Virus record (IMG/VR): IMGVR_UViG_3300036713_000599
Origin: a virus
Lineage: Duplodnaviria; Caudoviricetes
Direction: 5' to 3' (one strand)
DNA length: 64,000 bases
How positions within the stretch are numbered: the stretch's first letter is position 1; every line of letters begins with the position of its first letter. The notes beneath the pieces are model-generated. The model was not told the origin of the DNA. It was given only the letters and a program-made list of their open reading frames with translations, and did not search any database. Shown here piece by piece: positions 20,178-55,617 of the stretch. The position numbers and the translations under genes were made by a program.

Positions 20178-20795
20178 TTGATGCTTCTCCTACGTTACAA
20201 CATGAGAACCCTGAAGCACATTTACCTGGACATTCAGGACACAGCTAAGAAAATAGCATCTCTTGGGGACTTTGAGACAGCGGCAAGAGCCATGCAGGTC
20301 ACGGAGGCTTTAGGTGCTCAAACGATAGTAGACAAAAAGGCTTCGACGATCGGGGGTCTTGAACCAATTGGAGTATCTGGATGGTGGTCAAAGCCACACA
20401 ACCTGGTCCTTGCGTCGTCGAAGATGGGGTGGAGTCTGTGGACTTTCACTATACTGCCTTATTTCCCAGCGAAGAGGGCTGCACGCTTGGACTTAAATGG
20501 AATCGTTATTCGGCCCGTGTGGAGGCTGTCACGGTTCGGTCCTAGCAGTTTGACGCCACAACAAATCGAAAACACGGTAGCTACCATCAAAGAGTTTCCA
20601 TCCATTGCATCTATAGTCTCCAAGGAACTGGACTGGGTCGAACGAGAATTTGAACTCGAAGTCCCAAAGGGAATCCGAGATACCCTCGTAGGAGCGAGCC
20701 CTCGTCAGGCGGTGGCACGTTGGGGGTCGCCACATTGGGAGACCATCGACAGACTTATCCCTCTCGACGGTGCCATGCCCAGAGACTTACCATGA
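20178..20795 (+). CDS. Hypothetical protein
   Basis: 205-aa ORF; stop overlaps the next start. Carries ASPRQAVARW near the C-terminus. Confidence 0.6.
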   Translation: MMLLLRYNMRTLKHIYLDIQDTAKKIASLGDFETAARAMQVTEALGAQTIVDKKASTIGGLEPIGVSGWWSKPHNLVLASSKMGWSLWTFTILPYFPAKRAARLDLNGIVIRPVWRLSRFGPSSLTPQQIENTVATIKEFPSIASIVSKELDWVEREFELEVPKGIRDTLVGASPRQAVARWGSPHWETIDRLIPLDGAMPRDLP

Positions 20796-21553
20796 GGATT
20801 GCCGCTGTACAATTCCGGCCTGAATTTAGTGGACCGGGCGATAGTTTCTCACCCAACAGCAAGAATCGAGAGAGGAACATTCAAACACTCGTCGAGCTTG
20901 GTACTGAGGCGGCCAGAGGCGGGGCTGAGCTAATTGTCTTCCCAGAGCTTGCCACTACCGGTTACAGCTTCATGTCGGTAGCAGAGGCCGAGTCTCAGGC
21001 GGAGATTGTCCAAGCGAGGCGCGGGAGCGTTGGAGCGATGCTTGCCTTGGCTAAGCGGTTAGGTGTTGGATTTGTTTGGGGACTCGTTGAAAAGTCACCC
21101 ATCGTCGGCAAGCTCCATAATTCTCAGGTTATGGCATTACCTGATGGGACCTTGGTTTCCTATGCCAAGGTGAACAGGTGGGGCCAGGACCTGATATGGG
21201 CCGACGAAGGTGTAGACAGTCCACCTATAGTAGCCTTCAGGGGATTTAACGTCGGTCTGCTCATATGTCGTGATATCAAGGACAGTGGGTCTGGTCTGGA
21301 TGATTTTTACGAACCAGGAGATGCAGACATTGTGGCTTTTTCGACCAACTGGGGGAACGGAGCTTTTCCGTCAAATCGATGGGTTAATTTTGCGAAGTCA
21401 AATAACACCTGGCTTGTAGTCGCCAACAGGTACGGTAAAGAAGCAAACAACGACTTCGGTGAGGGCGGGAGCTGTGTTGTTAGCCCGAACGGCAAGGTCC
21501 ACTGTGAAGGTCTTCGATGGTCTTCGCCTTGCATCGTCTACGCTGACATCTAG
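20792..21553 (+). CDS. Carbon-nitrogen hydrolase (nitrilase superfamily)
   Basis: MRIAAVQF start; Glu-Lys-Cys triad contexts IVFPELATTGY, YAKV, LLICRD; VANRYG and GGSCVVSPNG. Confidence 0.88.
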   Translation: MRIAAVQFRPEFSGPGDSFSPNSKNRERNIQTLVELGTEAARGGAELIVFPELATTGYSFMSVAEAESQAEIVQARRGSVGAMLALAKRLGVGFVWGLVEKSPIVGKLHNSQVMALPDGTLVSYAKVNRWGQDLIWADEGVDSPPIVAFRGFNVGLLICRDIKDSGSGLDDFYEPGDADIVAFSTNWGNGAFPSNRWVNFAKSNNTWLVVANRYGKEANNDFGEGGSCVVSPNGKVHCEGLRWSSPCIVYADI

Positions 21554-22023
21554 ACGCGCGCTAATAGGCTCTTAGTTAGCCGCAGTAGAGATAGCCCAGC
21601 CAGTTCAGGGTCGTCGACGCCTATGGACTCACTTACTACTTTTGTCCACTCCGGCCGCCCTTTCAGATCGTACGGAACCCAGCCCATATTGAGGATCACT
21701 TTCCCATTCTTCAGCCCAATTCGTAGTGAGATTCCATCTACAGGGTGACGGGTGGAGAAGAAGTAGTACACGTCGGTACCTCGCTGGCTGACGTTCAGGT
21801 AGTACTTGTCCATGAATTTTTGCCGTAGGAGTTTGAGCAGACGAGGCATCAGTATGTTCACAGACTCCTTAGCCAACTGGATAGCTTCTTGGTCCTCTTT
21901 CGATGCAACAGCAATGGAGGAACCAAGCTTCGCGAACACCCACTCTGGAATAGGCGGGTTCCAGCCTTCCATCGACGTTTGAATGGCCCAGCGAGCTACG
22001 ACTCTACGAATTATACGTTCCAT
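21550..22023 (-). CDS. Hypothetical protein with N-terminal RRVVARW tag
   Basis: 157-aa ORF filling the gap between plus-strand operons. Confidence 0.65.
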   Translation of the reverse strand: MERIIRRVVARWAIQTSMEGWNPPIPEWVFAKLGSSIAVASKEDQEAIQLAKESVNILMPRLLKLLRQKFMDKYYLNVSQRGTDVYYFFSTRHPVDGISLRIGLKNGKVILNMGWVPYDLKGRPEWTKVVSESIGVDDPELAGLSLLRLTKSLLARV

Positions 22024-22055
22024 ATCTCTCCGAAGCCATCAATAGATCTCAAATC

Positions 22056-22065
22056 GGTGTAACTT
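22056..22065 (+). promoter_or_regulatory. GGTG-TAACTT promoter motif
   Basis: Hexamer ends 10 nt before GTG 22072. Confidence 0.6.
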
Positions 22066-22071
22066 AACCAG

Positions 22072-22470
22072 GTGAAACGAGTCAAACAGACGAAGTTTGG
22101 GTCGCCTGACGGCAATTGCTTTGAGGCATGCTTGGCGGCCATCCTTGAAATCCAATTAGACACGATCCCACACTTTCGAGAAGACGACTGGTTTCAGCAG
22201 ATTAATCGATGGCTCAAATGGCACCATGGAATGCAAATGCTCATGATCGAGCAGGACCTGACCGACATACTGTCGCCTGTCACCTATTCCATAGCGTCAG
22301 GGCCAGGCCCTCGTGGATTGCTGCATAGCGTAGTTTACCGTGGAACTGAACTTGCCCACGATCCCCATCCTGATAACAAAGGCCTTCAATCAGTGGACTT
22401 TTGGATCATTTTCGTTGCCCTAAATCCCTCGAAGATGCCTCGACGTAAGCCGCGCCGGTGTAGGAGTTAA
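22072..22470 (+). CDS. Papain/C39-like small peptidase-fold protein
   Basis: Q....GNCFEACLAAIL, HSVV and HDP give a Cys-His-Asp-like arrangement. Confidence 0.45.
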   Translation: MKRVKQTKFGSPDGNCFEACLAAILEIQLDTIPHFREDDWFQQINRWLKWHHGMQMLMIEQDLTDILSPVTYSIASGPGPRGLLHSVVYRGTELAHDPHPDNKGLQSVDFWIIFVALNPSKMPRRKPRRCRS

Positions 22471-22472
22471 CC

Positions 22473-23735
22473 ATGCCGACCAAACGACGGTGCAGCTTTT
22501 GCAGAAAAGCCGAAAATGAAGTCAAGTCTCTCGTAGGTGTCGACACCAAGGGCCCGTTCATTTGCAACAAATGCAGTACTTCGGTGAACGAGGCGCTGAA
22601 CCAAGACACGAAGGAGCGTATCCACGAGAACGCCGAGAAGCCTCTTCTGCCCCCGAAGGCCATCAAGGCCCACCTGGACGAACACGTTATCGGGCAAGAA
22701 AAGCTTAAGCGAGACCTCGCGGTAGGCGTTTACCGCCACTACCTGCGACGGGAGTACACTCGACAGGGTAGAGCTGACGATGTCCGGATCGACAAAAGCA
22801 ACATGCTCATTTTAGGGCCGTCCGGCAGTGGCAAGACTGAATGTGTCCGAGCCTTCACTGACCTGCTTGGAGTCCCGATGCACGTTGCGGATGCAAATAA
22901 GCTCACTCAGACGGGCTATGTCGGCGACGACGTGGAATCCATCCTCCAAGGACTATTAGCCGCGGCCGGAGGTGATCTCGAAAAAGCCCAATGGGGTGTA
23001 TGCGTCATTGACGAAATCGATAAAATTGCCAGCAAATCCGGAAGGGGAGCTACGGGCTTTCGCGACGTCACCGGTGAGGGTGTTCAACAAGCGTTGCTCA
23101 AATTAACCGAAGGTTGCAAGATCAACCTACCCCTTGGGACCTCTCGTATGATCTCCCTTGATCAGCCGACCACAATGTTCGACACAACGAACGTTTTATT
23201 CATATGTCTTGGCTCCTTTGAGGGTGGTCTAGGTGAAATCGTCCAACGTCGGGTGAACAAGGGCAATAGACTAGGTTTTGGTGCGTCCCAGTCGAAGAGG
23301 GAGCTTACAAAAAAGGACATATACGAATTAGCTGAAGAAGACGATATTCTTGAGTTCGGCATCATCCCTGAACTGAAAGGTCGTCTACCTATCATGACCA
23401 CGACCCTTCCTCTCACGGAGGAACAGCTTGTCCGTATCCTGACAGAACCAAAGCACGCCCTCATCAAGCAATTGGTCACTCTATTTTCTCTGGACAGCAT
23501 CCAGCTCATATTCGAGGACGCCGCACTTCGGGCCATTGCCCGTAAGGTGCGGAGTAAGCCCACTGGAGCCAGGGCTTTGAGAAGTGTGGTAGAAGATATC
23601 ACTATTCCCCTCACATATGAATACTCGGGCAGAGATTCTGATGTCGAGATCATAACCGTAACAGAGGCTGTGGTCACAGAAGGCCGCCCCCCGATTATCA
23701 GACCTAGATCCAGCAGAGTCGTTAAGCAAGGCTGA
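22473..23735 (+). CDS. clpX: ATP-dependent Clp protease ATP-binding subunit ClpX
   Basis: CSFC..ICNKC zinc domain, VIGQ, KSNMLILGPSGSGKT, DANKLTQTGYVGDDVE, IDEIDKI, DVTGEGVQQALLK, LGFG loop, PELKGRLP, TGARALRS. Confidence 0.93.
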   Translation: MPTKRRCSFCRKAENEVKSLVGVDTKGPFICNKCSTSVNEALNQDTKERIHENAEKPLLPPKAIKAHLDEHVIGQEKLKRDLAVGVYRHYLRREYTRQGRADDVRIDKSNMLILGPSGSGKTECVRAFTDLLGVPMHVADANKLTQTGYVGDDVESILQGLLAAAGGDLEKAQWGVCVIDEIDKIASKSGRGATGFRDVTGEGVQQALLKLTEGCKINLPLGTSRMISLDQPTTMFDTTNVLFICLGSFEGGLGEIVQRRVNKGNRLGFGASQSKRELTKKDIYELAEEDDILEFGIIPELKGRLPIMTTTLPLTEEQLVRILTEPKHALIKQLVTLFSLDSIQLIFEDAALRAIARKVRSKPTGARALRSVVEDITIPLTYEYSGRDSDVEIITVTEAVVTEGRPPIIRPRSSRVVKQG

Positions 23736-23753
23736 GGAAGTCTGATACCAGAG

Positions 23754-23766
23754 TCGCCCTCCTTCG
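23754..23766 (-). mobile_element. Possible IS605 left-end tip remnant
   Basis: TCGCCCTCCTTCG-GTGTA matches the element left end TCGCCCTCTTTCG-GTGTA at 17 of 18 nt. Confidence 0.45.
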
Positions 23767-23775
23767 GTGTAAGGT
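23766..23775 (+). promoter_or_regulatory. GGTG-TAAGGT promoter motif
   Basis: Hexamer ends 10 nt before ATG 23782. Confidence 0.65.
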
Positions 23776-23781
23776 CGACCT

Positions 23782-24603
23782 ATGAGTCGAATTCGCAGTG
23801 GAAGATCTGAAGGGCTACCTTACTCTCTCTCCAGGTGGACTGATTTACCCGCATCCAAGTGGCGTTGGTTTCAGGCTCAGCTACGTCAGGGGTGGATGGT
23901 TGCTTTCGATCCTCGTACCGCGGTTCCCAGCAAGTGGTCACTTGCTCCAGAAGACGTCCTCGGCCTTGTTTTTTGGACCCGTAAACCCACAACCCTGATC
24001 AAAAACTCTGGATCGCTCAAACCTTTTCCCTTAGTCATTCACATGACTATCACTGGCTGGGAAGAGGTTGAGATTGGTGCTCCCGATATGCACCGGAGCC
24101 TAGATCTTATGGCAAAGGCTGTGGATGTGTTCGGAGCCGAAAATGTCACGTGGAGGTTCAGTCCTATTCCGGCAGTCGAAGACATGGTCGAGAGGTTCGA
24201 TAGGATTGCTCGTTCGGTCGAATCTTTGGGGATTAGGAGCGTCTATGTAGCTTTCCTCCAGAACAATGACCTGATACCGGAACAAAGGTCACTGGTAACC
24301 CGCCAGGAGCTTCTACTTCAAATGTCAAGACAAGCTAAGGGGATGCAAGTACTTGTATGTAATGAAGATCGCGTGTTAGACGACCTTGCCTGTCCCGACA
24401 ATTTAGGGTACGGTGTCTGTGAGGATGGCCGTAGGTTCAAAAGGCAAGGTATGTCGCATGAGGCGTGCGGTTGCGCTCATTCGGTAGACCCGTTCACCAT
24501 AACCGAAGCTTGTTCGATTGGTTGCCAATACTGTTACGCAGCAGACAAGTCATTGGCCGCAACCAAGAAAAATACGACCAAGGGACTGTGGATACTTCCA
24601 TGA
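23782..24603 (+). CDS. DUF1848-family protein
   Basis: SLSRWTDLPA (cf. SASRRTDIPA), VFWTR, WRFSPI, CGC..SVD and C..GCQYCYA. Confidence 0.75.
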   Translation: MSRIRSGRSEGLPYSLSRWTDLPASKWRWFQAQLRQGWMVAFDPRTAVPSKWSLAPEDVLGLVFWTRKPTTLIKNSGSLKPFPLVIHMTITGWEEVEIGAPDMHRSLDLMAKAVDVFGAENVTWRFSPIPAVEDMVERFDRIARSVESLGIRSVYVAFLQNNDLIPEQRSLVTRQELLLQMSRQAKGMQVLVCNEDRVLDDLACPDNLGYGVCEDGRRFKRQGMSHEACGCAHSVDPFTITEACSIGCQYCYAADKSLAATKKNTTKGLWILP

Positions 24604-24842
24604 ATAATGTACTGGCAATGCTTGAGAACATAGAGGATTCAGAGGACTTTACCGAACAGGAGGCCGAGGAAGCCGTCCTAACCACTAGCTCCAATGATTT
24701 CGTCCAGAAGGTTGTGCGCTATGTACGGGCGGGTAATGTCGTGAGGGGATACGAGGTTCGTCGCTTCGTGAATCATCTTTACGTCCGTGTTAGTTTAACG
24801 GAAACAAAGTTGGTATTCAGAACCGATTGGATAGGGTCATGA
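24600..24842 (+). CDS. Hypothetical protein
   Basis: ATG 24600 overlaps the previous stop; 80 aa. Confidence 0.55.
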   Translation: MNNVLAMLENIEDSEDFTEQEAEEAVLTTSSNDFVQKVVRYVRAGNVVRGYEVRRFVNHLYVRVSLTETKLVFRTDWIGS

Positions 24843-25192
24843 CGACTTGCGACAACGAAGAAACTGCGGAAGAAACTCGGACCACGTATTGCGACCGGAA
24901 TCGAGTTGACAACGTGTGGGTTGAGGGTGCTGATGAGAACGGGGACGGTGGGATATGCCTCCTCGACACGTTGACGGAGGATCAAGTGGTCTACTCGGTC
25001 CAACGTAGTGAGAGGGCACGTGTGGACTTATGTAAGGTCACTAGCGACCCCGGCCTACTGAACATCGCGGCCAAGACTCCTAGGCTCCCGACCGGGCAAA
25101 AGGGAGATAAACTCCAAACTGAGATTAACCGTAACGCGGACAGCATTCCGTACTACTCTCAATTTAAAGGCAAACCACCGTGGAGCGGATGA
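24839..25192 (+). CDS. Hypothetical protein
   Basis: ATGA overlaps on both sides. Confidence 0.55.
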   Translation: MTTCDNEETAEETRTTYCDRNRVDNVWVEGADENGDGGICLLDTLTEDQVVYSVQRSERARVDLCKVTSDPGLLNIAAKTPRLPTGQKGDKLQTEINRNADSIPYYSQFKGKPPWSG

Positions 25193-25533: not shown

Positions 25534-26086
25534 GTATGACAAGGACAAGGTTGGCGGTACAGAAGCAAACCGCCAAGGGGCGAACAGCGAAGACTCCAGT
25601 GGATTGGCACAAATTAGCCGAAAAAGTGTTGGCTCGGGCCAAGAATCGAGGAGATGTGAAGCTCGTCCGAGCAGTCGAAGCAGCGATCAAGAGCAACCAG
25701 GTGGCACGATACCTCAAGAAGCGGAGCATCGTATCCGAAGTCGATCTGGACCGAGAGTTACCACCCTAGAAGACATCGACGACTTGGACACACAATTGAC
25801 CCAAGCCTTTCGTGTTTCCGACCCTGCTAAAATTTGGACCTTGGTACGAGACTTGCTGAAATTGACACGGTCCTTGGTTCAGGAGGCAGCCGAGACCAGA
25901 TTCCAGGTAAATTTTGGTTCCGAAAGGTGTGGTTCCTGCGATGGGTTAAAGGCCGGTCCTGGTGTGGTTGCTACCTGTTTTCAGCTACGAAAGTGTTTCT
26001 ACCGCAATATAAGGTCGGATGACACCTCGAAGAAACAGAAGGCTGTCCTTGATTCTTTCCGAACTATATCAAAGGGGCGATCGTAG
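25520..26086 (+). CDS. Hypothetical protein with Cys cluster
   Basis: CGSCDG..CF..KCFY; the true start is uncertain. Confidence 0.5.
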   Translation: MEGPKYDKDKVGGTEANRQGANSEDSSGLAQISRKSVGSGQESRRCEARPSSRSSDQEQPGGTIPQEAEHRIRSRSGPRVTTLEDIDDLDTQLTQAFRVSDPAKIWTLVRDLLKLTRSLVQEAAETRFQVNFGSERCGSCDGLKAGPGVVATCFQLRKCFYRNIRSDDTSKKQKAVLDSFRTISKGRS

Positions 26087-27227: not shown

Positions 27228-27229
27228 CT

Positions 27230-27239: not shown

Positions 27240-27245
27240 GGTAAT

Positions 27246-30975: not shown

Positions 30976-33900
30976 ATGGTACAAGCTGCAGCAATGATCA
31001 TTCAGAGAAGCGGGTCTGTCCTCATGTTGAAACGAGGCTCAACAGCCTCATGGATGCCCGGAAAATGGAATTTTCCCACAGGCCGTGTTGAGGATGACGA
31101 GTCCGTTGTTGAAGCCGCAATTCGGGAAACAGCGGAAGAGTCTGGAATAAGTGCGAATTTCCCTCAAAAGGTCATCACTTTGAATTTTCCTGAGGCAACC
31201 GTCACGTACTTCCACACCTTTGATAGCAGTGACACCGAACCAGTTCTCAACTTCGAATCTTCTGAGTATAGGTGGGTTCCTGTTCCCGAGGTGGTGAAAC
31301 TGGACACCATTCCTGGTGTGGACCAGGCTCTCAAGGCGTTGAGTGGGGTGACGAGGGTTGTGGCAAAGCAACAAGCCCTCGCCGTATCGGGGCTCTATGG
31401 TAGGCCTGTTGGCCGATTCGCGTCGTCTTTCAACCTGACTGAATTCAATGCGTTGGCCAGGGATATGCCAACCCTTGATGAGTGGTTTCATGGAGCTTCC
31501 ACATATCTTGAGGACAGAGGGGCCAAGCTCCTAGGCTTTGGTATGGGTCGAAGTGTTTACGCTCTTCCTGGGGACAGAGTTATCAAACTAGCTAAAAGTC
31601 AGTTTGGAAGGGAACAGAACCAACAAGAAGAGTTCTCCTACGACTCATTTCAAAGCCTGAAAATTTTGTTACCTGTCTTGGACGCAGCTGACGACGGAAG
31701 GTGGTTGATCTCACCCCTGGCAAAGTTAGCTAGTAGTAGGGACCTGGTTGCGTGGTCCGGAGTACCACGTGAAGTACTTCACGGTTTATTGGAGGGGGAT
31801 GAATCGCTACCCACATCAGATCTAACTCAGAAAGGCAAGAATCTGATCCGCTTTGCTCAAAAAGAAGACATGGTTGCAGCAGACCTGGTCAAGCTGGACT
31901 CGTGGGGCAAGTGGAGGGGTGAGCTTTGGTTGTTGGACTACGGGTTGAGCAAAGACGTAGCCCGACGCATGAAGAGAACCCTATACAGAGCCGCAGCCAC
32001 TCAACGAGTGGTGGCTCTGTACAAGAACAAGAAACAGGTCAAGAAACAAGACGGCAAAGGAACGACGACCGTCTACGAGTACAGTAAGAGGCAAGTCCAG
32101 CATCGAAATAGGGAAAAGGCCAAAAGAATCGAAAAACTCCGCCAAAGTATTTCGAATCTCCGTGCCCAGGTTGGAAAAGATCTCAAGTCATCGGACCCTG
32201 ACAAGTTCCTCACAGCACTTGCTGTGGGCCTCATAGACGAGACGTATGAGAGGGTCGGTAACGATGTGTCTGCGAAGGGCGGGCACTTCGGCGTCACTGG
32301 GTGGCGAAAGAATCATGTGAGTTTCAACCGAAATAAGGCGATTGTGAGCTACGTCGGCAAGTCGGGAGTAAAGCAGAAAAAGATGGTAAGCAACGCTCCC
32401 CTGGTGCGTGCCTTACGGGACGCTTGTGAGGCCGTTGAGGGAGAAGATTGCCTGTTCTGCCATGACACAGGTAAAGTCGATGCCAACAAGATCAACGCCT
32501 ACCTCCGGAAGTTCGACGTCACAGCAAAAGACATCCGTGGCTTGCACGCCAACGAAGAGATGAAGCAGCGGCTGAGAGCTGTCCGTAAAGGCAAGTTGCC
32601 TGAGGATCCGAAAGAGCGGAAAGCAGTTCTCAAGGATGAGTTTAAAAAGGCCCTGGAAGAAACAGCCAAGATTGTTGGGCACGAGGCGTCAACACTCAAG
32701 GGCCAGTACCTGGTTCCTGGCCTCGAAGACGAGTACGTCTCTAGTGGAGAAATCGTGCAAAAGTTGGACAAGTCGGCAGCCGTCGTAACACGTTATCTTG
32801 AGGCTGCCAAGGTCGTCCGGATTGATGGGCCTTGGGTTGACAAGATGCGCAAAGACTTCTTGATGCTCATGAAGAACATCCCGAGAGCCAAGGACTACGA
32901 TGCGGCGATCCAACTCAAGGAAGGGTTTGACCGGTGGCGACGGCAATCAGCGGAGTTTTTCTTCAAGAGATTCCTGGACAATTCTCTCAAATACGACGAT
33001 CGGATCGTGGAAAAAGTTCGGAAAGAGATAGAACGTAACCTCCGCAAACCTGCCAAAGACTTCTTCGACGAAGCCTACCTTCCCATTGAGCGAGCCAGCG
33101 ACTATACTCCAGCCTCAGTCCAATTCGAACGGTACCTTGAAGACGTAAAGAAGTGGGAGAAAAAGACTCGACGTAAGGCTCAGGTGTTCTGGAAGGCGTT
33201 GAAGGAAGCTCTCTCGATATATGAGAAGGGTTGGTACAAAGGGCCGGACGCACCGTCCACCCTACAAGCCGAGGTTCCCGTCTACGAAAAAACGGTCATC
33301 GAGGGCTTCCAAATTGAAGTTCGCGGCTACGAGCAGAGTGACGATATTGACAGAGAAGCGATGCCAATGATCCGAGAGGCTCTCAAGAGGTATAGGGAGA
33401 GGGCGGCTAAGCGTATACCTTGGGTGCTGAAAAACCAACTCCCGTTAGTACTGGAATTTGAAGCTACTCTGGACGTAGCAGGACGGTACAACCACGACGG
33501 GACAATCACGATTTTTGCATCGGCAGCAATCAACAGCACTCCCGACGCATTGACCAAGACGATGGCTCATGAGATGGGGCACCACTTATGGAGGTTGTTG
33601 AGCGGGGACGCTAGAGAATACTGGTCCACGGCCATTAGCGGAGACTATGGCAAGATTGACGTTCGAGAGCTGCTATCCGGATGGCCTGAAGGCATGTGGG
33701 CTTATGAATATGCTGACTACTTGGCGGACAAGGACCCGATTCTATCCCTTCAGCTAGAAACTGTATGGCCTGGGTATGGTGGACGGCAGGAGATGGTCGA
33801 GAAGCAGGACTTCGAGGATCGCTTGGAGGAAGGCTACACAACACTATCTGTTCCAAAGAACCCAATCTCTGGCTATGCAAGCAAGAACCCCGAAGAGGCA

Positions 33901-34047
33901 TTCTGTGAGGCCGTTGGGATGACAGTAGCTTACGGGAATCGAGCGGTGCTCCCACAGGTCCGCAAATGGCTCAACACTGTAATCCCAGGCCAGGTCAAGA
34001 TAGCAAACATCGTTAGTCGTTATCTTTCGACCCAAGAAGGACTCTGA
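30976..34047 (+). CDS. Polyvalent protein: Nudix + protein-kinase-like + type IB topoisomerase + helical + zincin metallopeptidase
   Basis: Nudix box GRVEDDESVVEAAIRETAEESGI. Kinase GFGMGRSVY..VIKLA..NQQE..DLVKLDSWG..LLDYG. Topo IB pentad ERVGN, VGKSG, KDIRG, VGHE, GQY. Zincin AHEMGH and YASKNPEEAFCEA. Confidence 0.85.
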   Translation: MVQAAAMIIQRSGSVLMLKRGSTASWMPGKWNFPTGRVEDDESVVEAAIRETAEESGISANFPQKVITLNFPEATVTYFHTFDSSDTEPVLNFESSEYRWVPVPEVVKLDTIPGVDQALKALSGVTRVVAKQQALAVSGLYGRPVGRFASSFNLTEFNALARDMPTLDEWFHGASTYLEDRGAKLLGFGMGRSVYALPGDRVIKLAKSQFGREQNQQEEFSYDSFQSLKILLPVLDAADDGRWLISPLAKLASSRDLVAWSGVPREVLHGLLEGDESLPTSDLTQKGKNLIRFAQKEDMVAADLVKLDSWGKWRGELWLLDYGLSKDVARRMKRTLYRAAATQRVVALYKNKKQVKKQDGKGTTTVYEYSKRQVQHRNREKAKRIEKLRQSISNLRAQVGKDLKSSDPDKFLTALAVGLIDETYERVGNDVSAKGGHFGVTGWRKNHVSFNRNKAIVSYVGKSGVKQKKMVSNAPLVRALRDACEAVEGEDCLFCHDTGKVDANKINAYLRKFDVTAKDIRGLHANEEMKQRLRAVRKGKLPEDPKERKAVLKDEFKKALEETAKIVGHEASTLKGQYLVPGLEDEYVSSGEIVQKLDKSAAVVTRYLEAAKVVRIDGPWVDKMRKDFLMLMKNIPRAKDYDAAIQLKEGFDRWRRQSAEFFFKRFLDNSLKYDDRIVEKVRKEIERNLRKPAKDFFDEAYLPIERASDYTPASVQFERYLEDVKKWEKKTRRKAQVFWKALKEALSIYEKGWYKGPDAPSTLQAEVPVYEKTVIEGFQIEVRGYEQSDDIDREAMPMIREALKRYRERAAKRIPWVLKNQLPLVLEFEATLDVAGRYNHDGTITIFASAAINSTPDALTKTMAHEMGHHLWRLLSGDAREYWSTAISGDYGKIDVRELLSGWPEGMWAYEYADYLADKDPILSLQLETVWPGYGGRQEMVEKQDFEDRLEEGYTTLSVPKNPISGYASKNPEEAFCEAVGMTVAYGNRAVLPQVRKWLNTVIPGQVKIANIVSRYLSTQEGL

Positions 34048-44427: not shown

Positions 44428-45816
44428 ATGGGAAAGTACGATCATATCGACTTTAGGCCTCCTGAGAATGTCGCTAAGGCCGCGGAGAAGGGGCTAGAGT
44501 ACAGAAGGCGGCAAGGGAAGGATAAGGCCGGCCTGACCCCCGAAGAAGCGTCAAAAGAGGGGATCGGCAGCGGTGTGCAAAGGGCGGTAAATTTAAAGAA
44601 TCGGACGAACATTAGCCCTAAGGTCATCAAGCAAATGGTGGCATTTTTCTCAAGGCACGAGAAGAATGCCAAAATCGACCAGAAGCACAAGAATGAACCT
44701 TGGAAAGACAAGGGCTACGTGGCTTGGTTAATCTGGGGTGGTGACCCTGGCAGGACGTGGGCCGGGAAAGTTTTGCGGCAAATGGAAGACGCTGACAAGA
44801 AAAAGGACGCCTCCGACCGATACATCAAGATCCTTCGCTCCGGTGGGGTGGTTTCGACGACGGAAACCACCGACCCTACCATGAAAGGGTTGGAGTCAAA
44901 AGGACTTGCTCACAGAGCAGGAACCTCTGGAGGGTACCATCTCTGGGTAGGTGGTGTCAGGCTCCAAGACACAAGGTCGGTCACTCACAAAGGTAGACTC
45001 GCTACTCGTCTCAAGGACCATCTCACTGCAAGACTGGACCACCTACTGAACAGCCTCCAGGGATGGAGGACAGGAGCCCTCAAAGGGGACTTGAAGATTG
45101 TCCTTGTCGGCTCCCAGGAAGCCCCAGACGCTGTTTACCAAGAGTCCGACGACACTCTCTACATTAAGGCGTCCGCTCGGCTCCTAGGGGCCAACAGATA
45201 CGGTTCTGCTGCCTATCACGTGCTTCGAGAGCTAGGACGCAGGTACGCCGCATTACACAATTGTAGGGCTGACTTCAGTGATTCCAAGTGGGAGGTGACT
45301 AAGTATGCCGCTAACCACGACCCGAAAAGCGTGTTTGCGGAATTGTTCGCCCTCAGCCACCTAGACCAAGAAGGGAGCTGGGATACCGCCATCGTGGGCG
45401 CTTTTGAGGCGATGATGGTGTCCGGTGGGAAGGACGCGAGTACCGGTCTTGATCCGGCCTCTTTACGGGATATCCTCCAAAACCTGACTAAACAGAAAAT
45501 AAAGGACTTTCCAGTCAAACTTGGGAAGTATCGAGCAAAGGCAGGGCGAAACGAGACATGGGACGCCGAGGCATGGATTGAATATGGCTTCCCAAAGACC
45601 ATCCCTATCCAAAGGGGCAAGGAACCAACCCTGCCCTCTCTACAACTGGTTTTCAAGTACAATCCTGCGAAGGGGCTGAGCCTTACAGCTTACGCTAAAA
45701 GTCCGGCCATGGGTATCAAGCGAAAAATCTACGAGAACCACAAGATCGCGGGTAATTACGAGCGCACCCTCCAAACGATGCTTCTAGGATACCAGCCCGA
45801 GATTGCGTGGAAGTGA
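44428..45816 (+). CDS. Multidomain protein: phage-head-associated N-domain + degenerate zincin-like region
   Basis: PPENVAKAAEKGL..RAVNL..MVAFFSRH..YVAWLIWGGDPGRTWA recalled from phage head proteins. Later RELGR replaces HExxH, followed by YAANHDPKSVFAELF. Confidence 0.6.
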   Translation: MGKYDHIDFRPPENVAKAAEKGLEYRRRQGKDKAGLTPEEASKEGIGSGVQRAVNLKNRTNISPKVIKQMVAFFSRHEKNAKIDQKHKNEPWKDKGYVAWLIWGGDPGRTWAGKVLRQMEDADKKKDASDRYIKILRSGGVVSTTETTDPTMKGLESKGLAHRAGTSGGYHLWVGGVRLQDTRSVTHKGRLATRLKDHLTARLDHLLNSLQGWRTGALKGDLKIVLVGSQEAPDAVYQESDDTLYIKASARLLGANRYGSAAYHVLRELGRRYAALHNCRADFSDSKWEVTKYAANHDPKSVFAELFALSHLDQEGSWDTAIVGAFEAMMVSGGKDASTGLDPASLRDILQNLTKQKIKDFPVKLGKYRAKAGRNETWDAEAWIEYGFPKTIPIQRGKEPTLPSLQLVFKYNPAKGLSLTAYAKSPAMGIKRKIYENHKIAGNYERTLQTMLLGYQPEIAWK

Positions 45817-50265: not shown

Positions 50266-50472
50266 CTACTTGCGAGAGAGAAAGAGAGCTACAGCCCGTT
50301 CGACGATCGACGCCTTCTTCGGCTTCCCTCCTTCTGTCTTGAACTCGTAGTCTGGCCTCATACGTTTGTAGATCCCCATGACATAGTCCCACTCTTCGGC
50401 GTGGCCTTGCTCCTTGGCGATCTCTTTTGCCTTGTCCCACTTATGCTCGTCTCGTTTCGTTTTCGTCGGCAT
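50266..50472 (-). CDS. Small helical (ChaB-like) protein with C-terminal VERAVALF tag
   Basis: KWDKAKEIAKEQG..EWDYVMGIYKRM. Confidence 0.6.
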   Translation of the reverse strand: MPTKTKRDEHKWDKAKEIAKEQGHAEEWDYVMGIYKRMRPDYEFKTEGGKPKKASIVERAVALFLSRK

Positions 50473-50494
50473 ACTACCAAGAGTGAAAAGGAAA

Positions 50495-50770: not shown

Positions 50771-51127
50771 GTTTCCGTTCCCCGAGGTGGTAAGAATCAG
50801 TAAGATGCCTCACCTCGTGAGGGGGCGCCATTTGACTTAAACTAGGATTTCTAAGTCGTCTGCTCTCTAACCAGAACTTTTTGGGGGACTGACCATCTCG
50901 ACGGTTCATGGTTGCAGGGACTCCTACGCCCTCTTCTCTTCTTCTCGGCATCGACTGCCTTCGATAGGGCTTTCAAGTCCTGTGACGACAGTTTGCTGAA
51001 ATCTAGCTTCAAGTTTCTCTCTCCTATGTTGGGCCCAGGTGGGGTTACTCACTATTTCTACTCAAGTGGTAAAAATAGATTCAGTAAAATACAACGTTTC
51101 CGTGAGGAATCAAGTTCATTTTGTAAG

Positions 51128-52000
51128 TCAGTGCGTATTTAAAGCCAAAGCACAATCAAGAGCCTCCTCGACCTCCCTGTCAGTAAGAATTTTGGCTACC
51201 TCGAAATGCATTCCGTCCAACCGGTCGTATCTGGGGGGCCATCCATGACCTCCCCAATAAAAACCAAATTTGTTCGCGAGGGGGACAAGTTCTCTCACAC
51301 AGTTCGCCTCGCCCACGAGAGCCGGTTGTCTTCCTAAGTAGTTGCCTGCGACATTTATGTCAAAAGCTGTTCCCCAAGAATGGTTGGACAGAATCGTTCT
51401 CGAACCTCGTACGAAACGAGGGACCCAACTACCAGCCCAGCTATTAATTTGGCAGATGTGCCCCGCGTCATCCCACGCTTGGAATAACCCCAATAACTGC
51501 GCTTTAGCTTTCTTGTTCCATAAAATGCGACAACTTTTTGGAAGCCCTGCAACACCCATCCCCTTAAGTTGCGGGATCACCATGTCTGTCAGGTTGGCTT
51601 TTTTCCATTTAGAAGGTATGATGACCCTTTCGGGGTTGTTCTTCGTGGGGGCGGGAGTGTATGGTATCTCTCCGAACAAGGTCACCCTCCGTCTCCAGTT
51701 AGCAGGTTTGAGATCCTTGGGATAAGGAGGCCACCCAGGGCCTTCTATGTTTTCTCGGTCCGGCTCAATGACCTCAAACCCCCCTTCCATTGCGACGCCC
51801 CATGTGCGGTTACCTACTACACCGTCATCATTCAAGTAGGACGCACGTTGGTATTTTTTGGTCGCCTCTTCCGTTGCTGGGCCAAAAGAACCGTCGACTT
51901 CCCCAATATAGTGGCCGGCCCCCAACAAGAAATTCTGCCACTTGCGAACCAGAGGCCCTCTGGACCCTTTTCTGAGATATGTCAGCATTATTGATGCCAC
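51128..52000 (-). CDS. Modular endolysin: peptidoglycan-binding domain + M15-family peptidase
   Basis: LRKGSRGPLVRKWQ..VDGSFGPATEEATKKYQ..DDGVVGNRTW; R..LSNHSWGTAFDIN; GFYWGG..DGMHFE. Confidence 0.9.
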   Translation of the reverse strand: MASIMLTYLRKGSRGPLVRKWQNFLLGAGHYIGEVDGSFGPATEEATKKYQRASYLNDDGVVGNRTWGVAMEGGFEVIEPDRENIEGPGWPPYPKDLKPANWRRRVTLFGEIPYTPAPTKNNPERVIIPSKWKKANLTDMVIPQLKGMGVAGLPKSCRILWNKKAKAQLLGLFQAWDDAGHICQINSWAGSWVPRFVRGSRTILSNHSWGTAFDINVAGNYLGRQPALVGEANCVRELVPLANKFGFYWGGHGWPPRYDRLDGMHFEVAKILTDREVEEALDCALALNTH

Positions 52001-52018
52001 CTTTCTGTGCGTCGTCTG

Positions 52019-52058
52019 GTGAACCAGCCCTCCCTAAAGGGGGGCTTGTGTCTCTCTG
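52019..52058 (-). mobile_element. Degenerate IS605 right-end remnant
   Basis: GTGAACCAGCCCTCCCTAAAGG vs element GTAAACTACCCCTCCCTAAAGG (3 mismatches in 22); flanked by TG and GTGTA. Confidence 0.7.
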
Positions 52059-52080
52059 GTGTACTTATCGATCATACACC
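52058..52080. promoter_or_regulatory. Palindromic pair of promoter motifs GGTGTA-N11-TACACC between divergent genes
   Basis: Minus-strand copy reads GGTG-TATGAT toward the endolysin; plus-strand copy faces the gene at 52093. Confidence 0.5.
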
Positions 52081-52092
52081 ACGAGGAGCCAC

Positions 52093-52413
52093 ATGATAGA
52101 AAACAAGACCTCAAAATTGGTGATATCCAAAACCTTGCTGAGACTACGGCAAGGACTGAAAGCTGCCAGCACCAAAAAAGAAAAAGTAGGTATGATGTTA
52201 TCCATTGCGACTCAATTCAATCGAGAGCATGACATCTTCAACGGAGACTTCAACGAAGGATACCATGCCCACTTCGAGGAATTCGAGCAAGCACGTATAG
52301 TTTTCCAGCAAGCGGCTATGCGTCTCGCTCGTCTGGCTGTAAGCGTCATCGATGACGAGTTTTCGGAACCGCTCGAAACGGACAACTCTCCACCTGAACA
52401 GGCCCCAAACTAG
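52093..52413 (+). CDS. Hypothetical protein
   Basis: ATG with SD GAGGAG. Confidence 0.6.
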   Translation: MIENKTSKLVISKTLLRLRQGLKAASTKKEKVGMMLSIATQFNREHDIFNGDFNEGYHAHFEEFEQARIVFQQAAMRLARLAVSVIDDEFSEPLETDNSPPEQAPN

Positions 52414-52492
52414 ATCACCGAAAATTCTCCCCAACTGAGAGGGAGCTGTTAGGGCAAAGTCCGACATGTAAAGAAGATCGCGAATTTTGTTC

Positions 52493-53002
52493 TCACTCTA
52501 ATTCTTCTTTCAAACATTGAACCACTCCTTCTAATCTTCGACGCTGGATGTCCGAGATCCTCACTAGCACATCTCCTTTGCCGCCACGGAATCCTAGCGC
52601 CCTGTGGCTTTCGACGACATAGATATGCGTGGGCACCCCAATGCCCAGAAGGACCTCACAGACCTCTTTCCACTGGATACGGCCCGTTCTGAATTTCAGC
52701 ACGCGAGCTTCGTCCGGGCACAGGGCCAGAATCCCGAGGGATTCCAGTCCCATCGTATGAGCATGCTCCTTGACAAGAGGACCGATATCGCCCACTGATG
52801 CCATGAGGCCGTGAAAGATTTCTAGGGAGGATACGAAGGCTTGCTTAACCTTCTGCCTTTCTGGGTTCATCTTATCTCCAGGGCGGGGAGGAGGTCCCGC
52901 GTCGTGAGGCACAGAACTCGGTCTGATCGAGATCTTGACTCCTACAAAGCCTCGGCCTTCAGGTCGAGGTAGTTGACTCACAAGGTAGACTACACCGATC
53001 AA
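52493..53002 (-). CDS. Hypothetical protein
   Basis: 169-aa ORF overlapping the upstream stop. Confidence 0.55.
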   Translation of the reverse strand: MIGVVYLVSQLPRPEGRGFVGVKISIRPSSVPHDAGPPPRPGDKMNPERQKVKQAFVSSLEIFHGLMASVGDIGPLVKEHAHTMGLESLGILALCPDEARVLKFRTGRIQWKEVCEVLLGIGVPTHIYVVESHRALGFRGGKGDVLVRISDIQRRRLEGVVQCLKEELE

Positions 53003-53379
53003 ACGCCCTGCTGTTCTTTGATGTTGCTGAGCCAGTGAGCTGCGAACACGGCCTGTTCACGCTGGGCTCTCGGATAGTAGCCTTCTACCGCTCCGCCTTG
53101 ACCAAAGTCGATAGCTCGCTGGTAGTAGCCAGTATTCATCTGAATCGCGACGGGATAGAACTTCCCGTCGGGGCCGCGCCAGAATTCCATATCAGGATCG
53201 GGAACAAGGTCGCCGCACTGACTGTAATAATGGGCCATCGAGAACCGGTCCTCACTGAGACGCTCAACGCTCAAAGGCATATATACATCACTGTTGGCAA
53301 TCTTCCTGCTGGTGCCAGGTGCCATGCCTTCAATGAGCTTGGTGAGAATCTTGGTGGCTTTTTTGTTGATAGCACGCAT
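52999..53379 (-). CDS. DUF6908/DUF1249-like protein
   Basis: YMPLSVE..SMAHYYSQCGDLVPDPDMEF signature recalled from this family. Confidence 0.6.
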   Translation of the reverse strand: MRAINKKATKILTKLIEGMAPGTSRKIANSDVYMPLSVERLSEDRFSMAHYYSQCGDLVPDPDMEFWRGPDGKFYPVAIQMNTGYYQRAIDFGQGGAVEGYYPRAQREQAVFAAHWLSNIKEQQGV

Positions 53380-53762
53380 TGTGCTGGTACTACGAGGGAA
53401 GAGACGACGAGTTCGGAAAAAGATCAAACTTTTTTCGTCAGAACAGATGTCGAACCAAGGATAGCCTTGATGCTCATAGGTGGCAGCTATGACCACGACA
53501 GGAAGAGGCTGCTCGCCCGTGACAGTAGGCCCTGCCATCGAATTGACGATATGTACAAAGCAACAACGAACTCCATCCGACTTACAGAAGACTTCCCAAA
53601 TCGACATGGCGGGCGAACTATTCTGCAGAAGTTCCGAATATCTCAGCCAGTTCTTCATCGGTCACCTCTACTGGCTTTTTGTCGGTCACCTGTTCAGGTA
53701 GAGGGCGCTTCGGACTCAGCGGAGTAACAAGAGCCCATTTCTCTTCTTCAACCACACACTGT

Positions 53763-54053
53763 TTAGGATTGCTTTTCTGTCCACTCGGGATCTAGTTGCC
53801 CGCTCAGGACATCAGCCATTTGCCTAGCCCTCTTACGAGCTACAGCTAGATTCATGTAGACTTCCGGCCCAAGCCTGACACCTGGAATGACAACCTCACC
53901 TTGGGGGCGGTCTTCCGATAGCATGACAGCTTCGACCACAAAGTCTTTGTAGCTCTCGTGCTGCTGTTCCTTCACTGTAATCTCCCAAGTCTCGCCGAAT
54001 CTATAGGAGCTGTCACCAAGCCCACCGGAAAAACCTGGAGGGCGCTTAATCAT
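53763..54053 (-). CDS. Hypothetical protein
   Basis: Start taken at MIKRPPG. Confidence 0.4.
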   Translation of the reverse strand: MIKRPPGFSGGLGDSSYRFGETWEITVKEQQHESYKDFVVEAVMLSEDRPQGEVVIPGVRLGPEVYMNLAVARKRARQMADVLSGQLDPEWTEKQS

Positions 54054-54135
54054 TATGGATGTTCGGACCATGCTCGTACTACGGATCGAAGACGCACAAG
54101 TTCGGTGAAAAATCATCTTATGCTCAGCACAGATT

Positions 54136-55617
54136 ATGAGCCTATCTGAACTTGTTAAAAGGGACCCTAAGAGAGCCTTTGGCCTTATTTTACAAGAAAA
54201 GATTGCAGGTGGTATTGACGTGTCGGAACCCGTCCAGCCCCTGTTGCCAGGTATGTCGGGCATGTTGGGCTCCATGTCCTCGTGGGATATAGCACATGGA
54301 GCCTACGCCTTTGACTATATCGCGGGTTATGACAAGGATCCACGAGTCAAGAAGTTTGCAAACGACCTCGCCACAGAATACGCTCGTCGGTTTGCTGACT
54401 GGCTTGGCTATGTCTTCCTGAACCGAGCAAACATGACGAAGCACAGCAAGCCTATGAAGGCGTTGCAGGCGTCGCTCGGTGACTGGGTCGAGGCTATTCC
54501 TGAAATGCTCATGCAAGGCAAGCCCAAGGTCCTCAGTGAGTTCGTTCCAAGCGACGCTCGCAAGTTTCTAGACATGAAGGTCGTCGATGCCATTGGCCGA
54601 AAAATCTTAAAAGTCGTACAACAAGACTGGGCCAAATCCTCCCGGACCGCACGGGGAGGGCTCAGGGACCTACCCATTACTTACAATCCTAGGTACAAGC
54701 GGTACGAAATCCCCAAGTCCAAGTTAACATATCCTCATCGGAACAAGCTCCGCGACCTCGGTTTCGACACAAATCGTAATCTCGACGTATGGTGGACGGA
54801 GATACTAGAATCCGCCGCCATTCGAGCCCTGCCACAAGCAGCAGACATAAAAAGACAGAGCGAGCCAGCTCCAGCTCCAAAAGGGGACCCCTCCGACTGG
54901 TTCTTTGATGACTGGCTTCCTGGTAACATCCAACGCTTCTCGAAGGTGTTCAATGCCTTCGGGCGAGGCGCGGGCATCCCGTACGAGTTCGACTTCACCG
55001 TCTCGGGCAAAGATGTTGAGGTGAGCTTCAGGCGAAACGTCAAGACGATAAAGGACGCTGTGGCCGAACTGACGGCTCGGTACGGGGGAGCAAACGACCG
55101 AGACGGTTGGATGACGGCCATTGCGGCATGGAAACAGCTCATGTCAGCCTCGGGCAAGGCAGCTATACATGCGGTAGACATGGCTAACAATCTCGAACAC
55201 ACCCACGGTGCAATGATGGAGCACTTCCCTCCAGGTGTGCGCCGATGGTACCCTAGTTTCCTCGACTACAAATACACTGCAAGTGCCATCCAGATGATCA
55301 AGCGAATCAAAGACGAGGACCTTCGAGTTGTAGCAATGGAACTTCTGCCTCTACGTGACCGTAAAGAAAGACTCGTCATTGAAGATAAGAGCCACAGGAC
55401 GCCAAAAGGACTTGCTTTGGAGATTAGTTCGCAGGCAGGCAAAGCGAACAAGAAAAAAATGCTCAGGGGCGTAAAGGACCGTTATCCTGACATGTACGAT
55501 GACGTGGTAAAGAACCTGGAGGAGAAGGGGTTGTTCCTGACGGCGTCCCTCACTCCCCGACGCATTGTGTCAAGGTACCTGCACGAGGCCAAGCTGTCTC
55601 CACAGCAACGCGGCTAA
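54136..55617 (+). CDS. Hypothetical multidomain protein with C-terminal TASLTPRRIVSRYL tag
   Basis: 493-aa ORF; no catalytic motif recognised. Confidence 0.75.
   Translation: MSLSELVKRDPKRAFGLILQEKIAGGIDVSEPVQPLLPGMSGMLGSMSSWDIAHGAYAFDYIAGYDKDPRVKKFANDLATEYARRFADWLGYVFLNRANMTKHSKPMKALQASLGDWVEAIPEMLMQGKPKVLSEFVPSDARKFLDMKVVDAIGRKILKVVQQDWAKSSRTARGGLRDLPITYNPRYKRYEIPKSKLTYPHRNKLRDLGFDTNRNLDVWWTEILESAAIRALPQAADIKRQSEPAPAPKGDPSDWFFDDWLPGNIQRFSKVFNAFGRGAGIPYEFDFTVSGKDVEVSFRRNVKTIKDAVAELTARYGGANDRDGWMTAIAAWKQLMSASGKAAIHAVDMANNLEHTHGAMMEHFPPGVRRWYPSFLDYKYTASAIQMIKRIKDEDLRVVAMELLPLRDRKERLVIEDKSHRTPKGLALEISSQAGKANKKKMLRGVKDRYPDMYDDVVKNLEEKGLFLTASLTPRRIVSRYLHEAKLSPQQRG

Follow-up and report, generated by a model that had tools for sequence, protein, structure and literature searches.

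A short helical peptide at protein ends and module borders in an uncultivated huge phage and its relatives: a candidate address tag

The question raised by this locus is why proteins with nothing else in common should carry the same short peptide. The window analysed here, a stretch of 64,000 nucleotides from an uncultivated huge phage (Caudoviricetes), and the genomes of related phages encode unrelated proteins that share a short helical peptide, …A-x-R-V-V-A-R-Y-L…, placed either at a protein end or between enzyme modules. A preliminary description had cited nine such peptides from the window as one recurrent motif, and had proposed a portable capsid-loading or proteolysis signal that marks cargo and allows modules to fuse. 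No published description of the motif was found in the searchable literature.

Tagged proteins of the window

All nine cited peptides exist at their reported positions and seven hold as a single motif, one of them (VTRVVAK) in decayed form. The other two were rejected: ASPRQAVARW, in the gene at 20178, sits in a conserved globular stretch where an orthologue reads MRQAQSRW, and DASDRY, in the gene at 44428, is not conserved. The consensus reads [K/L]-[L/T]-A-x-R-[V/I]-[V/A/L]-[A/S/x]-R-[Y/F/W]-[L/x]-x-A-K and corresponds to an amphipathic helix about 14 residues long, whose helical hydrophobic moment is 0.4-0.6 and whose conserved residues share one helix face. In AlphaFold2 models the tags appear as short helices, either within linkers of low confidence that join confident domains or past a flexible C-terminal linker, and their distance from the protein end is variable. 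One large protein carries them at its module borders and C-terminal end:

30976..34047, plus strand: polyvalent protein of 1023 aa with NUDIX, a kinase-like segment, topoisomerase IB and zincin (HExxH); tags at module borders and at the C-terminal end
31348..31368, plus strand: VTRVVAK, residues 125-131, decayed tag directly C-terminal of the NUDIX domain
31996..32031, plus strand: TQRVVALYK (R344), tag directly ahead of the topoisomerase IB module, 6.2 bits
32770..32811, plus strand: KSAAVVTRYLEAAK, residues 599-612, tag between the topoisomerase IB and zincin modules, 15.4 bits
33997..34044, plus strand: KIANIVSRYLSTQEGL, residues 1008-1023, C-terminal tag of the polyvalent protein, 7.9 bits

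Pfam places the NUDIX domain at residues 4-110 and Topoisom_I at 375-575, and H865, E866 and H869 of the zincin module are invariant across 32 homologues. Low-confidence linkers separate the confident domains in the model of this protein. As in the polyvalent proteins described by Iyer et al. 2017 (PMC5512222), several unrelated enzyme domains are combined with a C-terminal zincin in a phage of the portal-terminase kind, portal and terminase both being present in the syntenic relative G001; a term search of that paper returned no shared peptide at module borders or termini.

VTRVVAK opens a stretch of low pLDDT (125-253); G001 keeps TRVVA at the same position, the R-Y half is missing and the score falls below threshold. 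The R344 tag forms the end of a helix (326-347), with pLDDT below 50 at 341-350, and at this site the family consensus is RVAARYKxKK and the G001 counterpart KRTAARY. The tag in KSAAVVTRYLEAAK (AVVTRYL, residues 602-608) corresponds to NRVVARYATEL in G001, and was modelled as an isolated helix (599-608) in a linker whose pLDDT is below 50 at 599-611. That in KIANIVSRYLSTQEGL (NIVSRYL, residues 1011-1017) lies in a terminal helix (1010-1022) where the last residues have a mean pLDDT of 56-59; its G001 counterpart is the terminal ARVIARYLANRGQR (RVIARYL), and the stand-alone zincins in L004 and L005 end in RVLERFL and RVLGRFL, respectively. The same junctions are tagged in fused and in split versions of the polyvalent protein, the split version in G005 consisting of four separate genes with tags at their ends. 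No evidence was found that the tag allows modules to fuse, as had been suggested; it is simply retained at fusion junctions.

Further matches lie elsewhere in the window, and one of the rejected peptides is listed with them:

20706..20723, plus strand: QAVARW in the gene at 20178, rejected as a tag; scores below threshold
21982..22020, minus strand: ERIIRRVVARWAI (RRVVARW), N-terminal tag of a 157-aa protein (21550-22023), 14.5 bits
50269..50319, minus strand: KKASIVERAVALFLSRK (ERAVALFL), C-terminal tag of a 68-aa protein (50266-50472), 7.7 bits
55549..55593, plus strand: LTPRRIVSRYLHEAK, residues 472-486 (RRIVSRYL), C-terminal tag of a 493-aa protein of unknown fold (54136-55617)

The top match of the window, LTPRRIVSRYLHEAK (23 bits), ends a protein modelled with a confident fold to about residue 463, then a flexible linker, then a helix (475-486). 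The tagged extension is missing from the L001 and L002 orthologues, and most members of the orthologous family have no tag at all, the others bearing it at either the N- or the C-terminal end. Such placement at either end within one family, together with the junctions tagged alike in fused and split proteins, bears out the earlier view of a portable signal that marks unrelated proteins at termini and module borders. The small gene at 50266 is real, its G001 orthologue being 83% identical and keeping the tag as ERVVALFLRE. The layout of ERIIRRVVARWAI matches the G001 N-terminal leaders MNKLTARVVARYL and MNLTERVVARYL, and its gene is divergent from a peptidase-ClpX pair. Tagged genes of the window are mostly found among replication and accessory genes, not among late genes.

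Enrichment and conservation of the motif

The matrix used to score the window was trained solely on sequences of relatives, with a threshold of 6 bits. It returned seven matches at or above this threshold against 0.88 in shuffled proteomes (none of 500 shuffles reached seven), and three against 0.03 at 14 bits or more. One of the seven, in the gene at 25536, is probably a false positive because orthologues do not keep the peptide. Seven related genomes held 66 tags where about 6 were expected: 19 were N-terminal, 16 C-terminal and the remainder internal, which puts 35 of the 66 no more than 25 residues from a terminus (expectation about 21%; P about 1e-8). Among 118 independent metagenome polyvalent proteins with topoisomerase IB, 48 tags were counted against 1 expected, and strong matches reached densities of 6.6-12.6 per 100,000 residues in called genes versus 0-1.1 in other frames. 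Synonymous codons differ among copies of the tag, and the repeat therefore exists at the protein level rather than the DNA level. These data show a real, conserved and portable motif that prefers protein ends and linkers and is selected at the protein level.

Chance or compositional likeness, or a peptide integral to each fold and without shared function, would be an extremely improbable account of the motif. Likenesses of that kind do occur, as two of the nine cited peptides and those in the major head protein, scaffold and protease illustrate. However, enrichment over shuffles is 10- to 50-fold in every data set, orthologues keep the tag through synonymous change, its position shifts within the 54136 family, and the tags lie outside confident folds.

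Candidate readers of the tag

Gene context makes capsid loading by the tag plausible. The motif may be a portable docking helix on flexible linkers, read by one common partner, that recruits cargo to the assembling prohead, where it would be packaged and later injected with the DNA. Putative cargo comprises NUDIX, topoisomerase IB, zincin peptidases, a 2H/Acb1-like phosphodiesterase and small head-module proteins, and the enzymes could act in counter-defence and host takeover. On the same grounds of gene context, we consider this the leading reading, at not quite an even chance: by docking through the tag, counter-defence enzymes and small proteins of the head module would be brought to the head during its assembly.

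Three tagged proteins are encoded between terminase and major head protein in G001: one of 129 aa starting with MNKLTARVVARYL, one of 407 aa, and one of 965 aa directly after the portal. The tags of the 129-aa and 965-aa proteins are kept in G005 and G002, and that of the 129-aa protein also in G004 and G003; in the 129-aa family, at least 90% of sequences have R-V in the N-terminal tag (47 aligned members of 138 homologues found). In G004 the slot between terminase and portal is taken by a tagged topoisomerase IB gene, and the G003 orthologue stands in that slot with no tag scored at 9 bits. G006 has a tagged HAD-topoisomerase IB protein between portal and protease, adjoining an untagged zincin-PolyA_pol protein. 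This head-module evidence does not form a set of independent events, because it rests on few orthologous genes. Phage polyvalent proteins are predicted to be packaged (PMC5512222), and loading through a short signal at the terminus is known for P1 DarB and for the internal proteins of T4 (PMC9024508). In the polyvalent protein each module keeps its own tag, and fused and split versions would therefore be loaded alike. Tunturi_5 and Bacillus phage G, the closest relatives in culture, carry no tag. A head receptor was sought among the scaffold, the protease and the C-terminal end of the major head protein and none was found, since their tag likenesses failed orthologue comparison.

As a counterpoint to head loading, a ClpX encoded in the window is an equally concrete candidate reader, an option that the preliminary description had left out:

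22473..23735, plus strand: phage ClpX, candidate tag reader and no part of the tag; Pfam zf-C4_ClpX, AAA_2 and ClpB_D2-small

It is rather unlikely, if worth serious consideration as the main rival reading, that the tag is a private recognition signal for this unfoldase, either as a tether to its zinc-binding N-domain or as a degron at a protein end. In that case, early enzymes with a tag would be eliminated, remodelled or passed on at a defined moment, probably with host ClpP as partner. ClpX can recognise proteins by a short peptide at either terminus. LRVVK closes the SspB tail, and TNTAKI is the degron of lambda O. The phage protein aligns to solved ClpX with E = 5e-95 and keeps GYVG, with a ClpP-docking loop LGF at the IGF position, whereas its specificity loops are rewired (RKH to RMI, and F at the residue aligned to T199). 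In the E. coli and human enzymes, changes at the RKH and T199 positions shift which degrons are chosen (PMC7652416), and the ClpX N-domain binds basic-hydrophobic, SspB-like tails of the LKxh type (PMC7226468). ClpX with a zinc-finger N-domain occurs in five tag-bearing genomes (the window, G001, G002, G004 and G005), and two tag-less genomes, Tunturi_5 and G009, have no ClpX. Tags without ClpX were seen, however, in the incomplete G006 (13 tags, 67% complete) and G003 (7 tags, 49% complete), and Bacillus phage G has ClpX alone. Tagged genes lie within five genes of clpX five times against 1.2 expected, but this may merely reflect clustering of accessory genes. The variable distance from tag to protein end is a poor fit to a carboxylate-anchored degron, and a degron is hard to square with conserved tags in the head module or with several tags per polyprotein.

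Docking of the bearers on some other hub, such as a DnaK-type host or phage chaperone, a replication or transcription factory, another phage scaffold or the membrane, is rather unlikely as well. The motif is a generic amphipathic basic helix, and DnaK-type chaperone sites are basic-hydrophobic-basic. Conservation across phages of 51-64% G+C would fit a very conserved partner, two tagged proteins have borderline DnaJ-family matches below Pfam's own cut-offs, and replication and accessory genes are where most of the window's tags occur. Nevertheless, the strict R-x3-R-[Y/F] spacing and the small helix-face residues point to one specific protein pocket more than to a membrane or to chaperone binding of a promiscuous kind. 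Nor did any candidate hub emerge, and the placement of tagged genes in head modules is left unexplained. A cleavage site at which the prohead protease or the polyvalent protein's own zincin would set modules free is very improbable, even though tags stand at module borders, zincins of polyvalent proteins are predicted to be self-processing like P1 DdrB (PMC5512222) and [K]-x-A-[S/A/N] often occurs just upstream of the tag in the window. The proteolysis signal suggested earlier found no backing: the conserved residues describe a helix face and not a scissile pair; in many cases the tag is 4-8 residues short of a terminus, or at the very N-terminus, where a cut would free nothing useful; and the complete genome G002 is tagged while no homologue of the zincin module was found in it. 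Upstream of strong tags in general, [KR]-x-A-[SATGN] was seen in 4 of 39 cases against a background of 2.5%.

Comparison with known systems and significance

The T4 capsid targeting sequence (Mullaney and Black 1996, cited in PMC9024508) is likewise a portable short peptide common to unrelated internal proteins, which are packaged and injected and include anti-restriction and host-modifying proteins (PMC9024508). Packaging would be the putative role of the tagged cargo here. In T4 the signal stands strictly at the N-terminus and the prohead protease takes it off, as known capsid-targeting peptides are N-terminal and cut off, whereas the present tag differs in sequence, stands at either end or between modules, sometimes several times per protein, and is followed by no conserved prohead-protease site where it is N-terminal, nor does it contain a conserved cleavage site. 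P1 DarB, a very large multi-enzyme anti-restriction protein with an N-terminal packaging signal of at most 30 residues (PMC9024508), resembles the bearer studied here, a multi-enzyme protein of the polyvalent kind with a terminal signal. However, the signal of DarB is N-terminal only and the P1 authors found no consensus among Dar protein N-termini (PMC9024508), while the present tag has one clear consensus across dozens of protein families and many phages. ClpX recognition peptides (SspB tail, degrons) are also short, basic-hydrophobic and placed at either end or as an internal tether (PMC7226468, PMC7652416), but their motifs are shorter (LKxh) and bind as extended strands, in contrast to the conserved helix of about 14 residues known here from sequence.

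The tag shares with encapsulin cargo peptides its shortness, its flexible linker and its position outside the cargo fold, as judged from the AlphaFold2 models. Encapsulin cargo-loading peptides are short and terminal, sit on flexible linkers at either end of unrelated enzymes and dock inside an HK97-fold shell, and such cargo can be read from sequence by its Gly-Ser-Leu-type motifs. The tag consensus is different, and encapsulins form protein compartments inside cells rather than virions filled with DNA.

Tentatively, and as somewhat less than an even prospect, a large clade of huge phages may use a single address code readable from sequence: proteins or modules bearing the helix A-x-R-V-V-A-R-Y-L on a flexible linker, whether terminal or at a fusion joint, would all be led to one reader. 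In a bolder variant, this reader would be the phage's own ClpX with its rewired specificity loops, forming a private channel for protein handling, and would give a first example of degrons or tethers private to a phage. The identity of the reader has become a concrete question that can be tested with peptides, whether the tag serves head loading or ClpX.

Huge phages possess hundreds of genes without known role. With no need of homology to known proteins, a shared address tag assigns to one functional class a defined subset of them (NUDIX, topoisomerase IB, zincin peptidases, Acb1-like phosphodiesterase and many unknowns), and flags those most likely to act first in the infected cell. It also offers a simple account of how polyvalent proteins are assembled and rearranged: every module brings along a tag of its own, and fusion or fission would therefore leave delivery unchanged. 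If the tag loads heads, foreign proteins could be packaged in large capsids with the 14-residue peptide as a tool. If the address code is true, about 14 appended residues could create new cargo, and the set of packaged and injected effectors would be readable from genome sequence.

Definition of the tag and its occurrence in the window

A short helical peptide of the approximate form A-x-R-V-V-A-R-Y-L, carried at the ends and module borders of unrelated proteins, is a real, conserved and portable tag. Its general kind is known, whereas its consensus is previously undescribed, as is its layout: it occurs at either end of a protein and at module joints, and one protein can carry several copies. 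A search of 8.4 million papers and preprints with six motif forms returned only an unrelated epitope list, and a term search of the polyvalent-protein paper (PMC5512222) found no such peptide and not a single use of the word 'linker'.

The window is a portion of an uncultivated huge phage and encodes helicases, a DNA polymerase, a thymidylate synthase, ClpX, methyltransferases and TnpB-type transposases. Its relatives were IMG/VR contigs of 200-530 kb, and six were taken whole (G001 to G006, with G002 complete by CheckV) and subjected to gene calling with a purpose-made codon-usage scorer. The 372-kb contig G001 was syntenic with the window over about 70 kb, gene for gene. The major head protein of this clade showed 49% identity to that of Tunturiibacter phage Tunturi_5 and 39% to that of Bacillus phage G. 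Two transposase genes broke the gene order otherwise kept with G001, and several enzymes had unusually long frames:

12813-13937 (+), TnpB/IS605-type transposase
59033-60322 (-), TnpB/IS605-type transposase
7390-11565, DNA polymerase of 1391 aa, versus 981 aa in G001
4129-6147, DnaB-like helicase of 672 aa, versus 486 aa in its orthologue
215735-218077 of G004, ClpX in a 780-aa frame, the ClpX match split in two pieces

The long polymerase, helicase and ClpX frame look like cases of intein-type insertion. A recurrent element GCCCTC(T/C)TT(C/T)GGTGTA was located about 10-25 bases upstream of the window starts 14340, 23782, 34274 (-), 47808 and 60782, and preceded none of the tagged genes. A putative sigma-70-like promoter before the polyvalent gene was seen by eye and was absent from the promoter scan output.

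The motif was defined from the relatives alone, so that the pattern was not tested on the data that had prompted it. The polyvalent protein of G001 contained two copies of RVVARY, both at module borders, and an RVIARY eight residues short of its C-terminal end. Stand-alone zincin proteins carried a C-terminal RVLERFL or RVLGRFL, and other proteins of the relatives an N-terminal MNKLTARVVARYL or MNLTERVVARYL. A profile of 22 such sites was scanned over the window proteins and gave seven matches of at least 6 bits versus 0.88 in shuffled proteomes, none of 500 shuffles reaching seven; at 14 bits or more, three matches were observed versus 0.03. Enrichment over shuffled proteomes was thus obtained, and a chance resemblance is scarcely credible.

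All nine peptides cited in the preliminary description were present in the window, and six of the seven matches were among them. The seventh, in the 25536 gene (window genes are named here by coordinate), was probably a false positive, as orthologues do not keep the peptide. Orthologue alignment also ruled out ASPRQAVARW of the 20178 gene and DASDRY of the 44428 gene, left VTRVVAK as a related but decayed copy, and established the 68-aa 50266 ORF as a real gene with a conserved C-terminal tag. Tag copies differed at synonymous codon positions, and strong matches were about ten times commoner in called genes than in other frames, which places the repeat at the protein level.

Spread, position and portability

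Tags observed and expected from shuffles. Genome counts used a threshold of 12 bits over eight core columns. The DNA-pattern count misses R-V-A-A-R forms and undercounts G004, whose tags were taken from the protein scan.
Window: 3 observed, 0.25 expected
G001: 17 observed, 1.1 expected
G005: 11 observed, 0.65 expected
G002: 10 observed, 1.9 expected
G004: 5 observed, 0.8 expected
G006: 13 observed, 0.7 expected
G003: 7 observed, 0.5 expected
118 metagenomic topoisomerase-IB polyvalent proteins (those of the window and G001 left out): 48 observed, 1.0 expected (shuffle maximum 4)

Enrichment at termini was confirmed: of the 66 tags in the seven genomes, 35 lay within 25 residues of an end, versus about 21% expected. 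In the metagenomic set, 11 of the 48 tags were found within this distance of the N-end and eight of the C-end (about one expected each); this set also yielded a wider consensus, K-L-A-x-R-V-[V/A]-A-R-[Y/F]-L-[A/E]-A-K. No cultured phage with the tag was found, Tunturi_5 and phage G being tag-less.

The window's polyvalent protein (30976-34047 (+), 1023 aa) was modelled with AlphaFold2 from a 32-sequence alignment (mean pLDDT 72). Its NUDIX, topoisomerase and zincin parts were confident, and its tags (residues 341-350, 599-611 and 1007-1022) were modelled as short helices coinciding with low-confidence joints. For the 54136 protein (mean pLDDT 84), the model was confident to about residue 463; beyond this came a flexible linker and then the tag itself, as a separate helix at 475-486. 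The consensus displayed a high helical and a low strand hydrophobic moment, with hydrophobic residues at i, i+1, i+4 and i+5 and both arginines on the opposite face.

Split, fused and shifted versions showed that the peptide is portable among the termini and module junctions of unrelated proteins, as had been proposed. The segment between two tags was swapped between the window, where it is kinase-like, and G001, where it is different and shorter. A tag separated the HAD and topoisomerase domains in G006, and the stand-alone topoisomerase of G002 had tags close to both ends. In G005, the polyvalent protein was split into four adjacent genes with tags at their ends:

335-aa protein: C-end tag
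625-aa protein: tags at both ends
587-aa protein: internal tag at R426 after the topoisomerase IB domain, weak tag at R143 before it
Zincin: N-end tag

The clearest case of portability was the family of the 54136 protein (41 homologues), most members of which stop directly after the core. The window copy ended with a C-terminal tag, others had C-terminal variants such as RRIASRWMRKHL, and several carried an N-end tag instead, e.g. MIRKVVARFLAK or MDRLAQAVAARYL. This conserved family (window 54136-55617 (+)) has a length of about 455 aa and 34 invariant positions, an HxHGxxxEHFP-like block among them; its fold was confidently predicted, yet Foldseek found no match in PDB or viral models at E values up to 0.001. 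Many of its orthologues open with a second short motif, Y-[S/D]-Y-D-R, in the slot where others have the RVVARY tag. Unrelated proteins carried this second motif at their N- or C-terminal end, with five copies in G001 (about 0.2 estimated by chance), three in G005 and none in the window; sites included L033:16634-18021 and L029:9380-10018 of G001, L043:12625-12957 of G005 and the N-termini of P0122-P0158.

Tag bearers and the head module

Pfam matches among tag bearers comprised NUDIX, topoisomerase IB, HAD_SAK_1, DUF5661 and a 2H phosphoesterase with an Acb1-like match, as well as zincin-like (Peptidase_Mx, ATLF) and DnaJ-like matches, all of the latter under Pfam's own cut-offs; many bearers had no Pfam match.

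The head module of G001 was ordered terminase, portal, 965-aa protein, protease, scaffold and major head protein, and held three tagged proteins. A 129-aa protein, encoded two genes upstream of the terminase, had an N-terminal tag kept in G005, G002, G004 and G003, and the 965-aa protein after the portal had a tag around residue 65-80 kept in G005, G002 and G003; such conserved tags represent a few orthologous genes, not independent events. Of the 138 homologues found for the 129-aa protein, 47 were aligned, and in these the R and V of the tag were at least 90% conserved. This family of about 130-aa proteins (G001 copy L031:13224-13613 (-), upstream of the large terminase; P0164 in the window's own genome) is without annotation and combines its N-terminal tag with an invariant NLSQYLIRTEGGG-like C-terminal block. 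It had no PHROGs match, no named ESM Atlas cluster and no relative among deposited phage genomes.

A tagged topoisomerase IB gene lay between terminase and portal in G004, whereas its orthologue in the same slot of G003 scored no tag at 9 bits or above. Between portal and protease, G006 encoded a tagged HAD-topoisomerase protein adjoining a zincin-PolyA_pol protein in which no tag was scored. These multi-enzyme proteins of the G006 head operon (L104:9068-18583; HAD_SAK_1 with topoisomerase IB, zincin with PolyA_pol head domain) occupy the slot of the 965-aa tagged protein of G001.

Other candidates in the module were rejected. LTRMVITRF, at the C-end of the major head protein in three genomes, belongs to the fold, since the alternating strand is also present at or near the end in tag-less Tunturi_5 and phage G. 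Orthologues do not keep the scaffold stretch LRVARHML, nor RAVVAKL and RRVLGREL of the protease.

Possible functions of the tag

The main rival to head loading, recognition by ClpX, is somewhat improbable. ClpX recognises peptides at either end of a protein and, through its N-domain, binds short tails of basic-hydrophobic character (PMC7226468); the window ClpX is full-length with a zinc-finger N-domain, and five tagged genes were near clpX versus 1.2 expected. Across genomes the pattern was mixed: tags and ClpX occurred together in five, tags without ClpX in two incomplete genomes, neither in two others, and ClpX without tags in phage G. Aligned to solved ClpX, the phage protein (22473-23735 (+), next to the tagged 22023 gene) kept the GYVG pore loop and the LGF ClpP-docking loop, with RKH replaced by RMI and an F where E. 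coli has T199. Since degron choice is set at these positions (PMC7652416), the phage enzyme is expected to select substrates differently from host ClpX. A complex model of two copies of the ClpX zinc-binding domain (residues 1-62) with the last 42 residues of the 54136 protein scored 0.02 against a mark of 0.34, a result that speaks neither for nor against binding. Docking to another hub is unlikely.

Cleavage at the tag, the proteolysis signal of the preliminary description, agrees with placement at module borders; however, it does not suit tags a few residues from protein ends, and no scissile pair is conserved. The complete G002 genome has tags but lacks any zincin-module homologue, which also removes zincin as the protease, and this reading is very doubtful. 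A composite [KR]-x-A-S cleavage site plus helix held for only four of 39 tags, and the L/K-x-A upstream makes better sense as the beginning of the helix. A twin-arginine export signal was discarded, since the tag is not followed by a hydrophobic stretch and also occurs at C-ends.

In their mix, the bearers resemble the enzyme kits found in polyvalent proteins, whose packaging and delivery together with the DNA has been predicted (PMC5512222). Short terminal capsid-targeting signals are borne by comparable cargo in T4 and P1 (PMC9024508). By guilt by association, from its gene context, the tag quite possibly serves the loading of the head, the other role proposed in the preliminary description.
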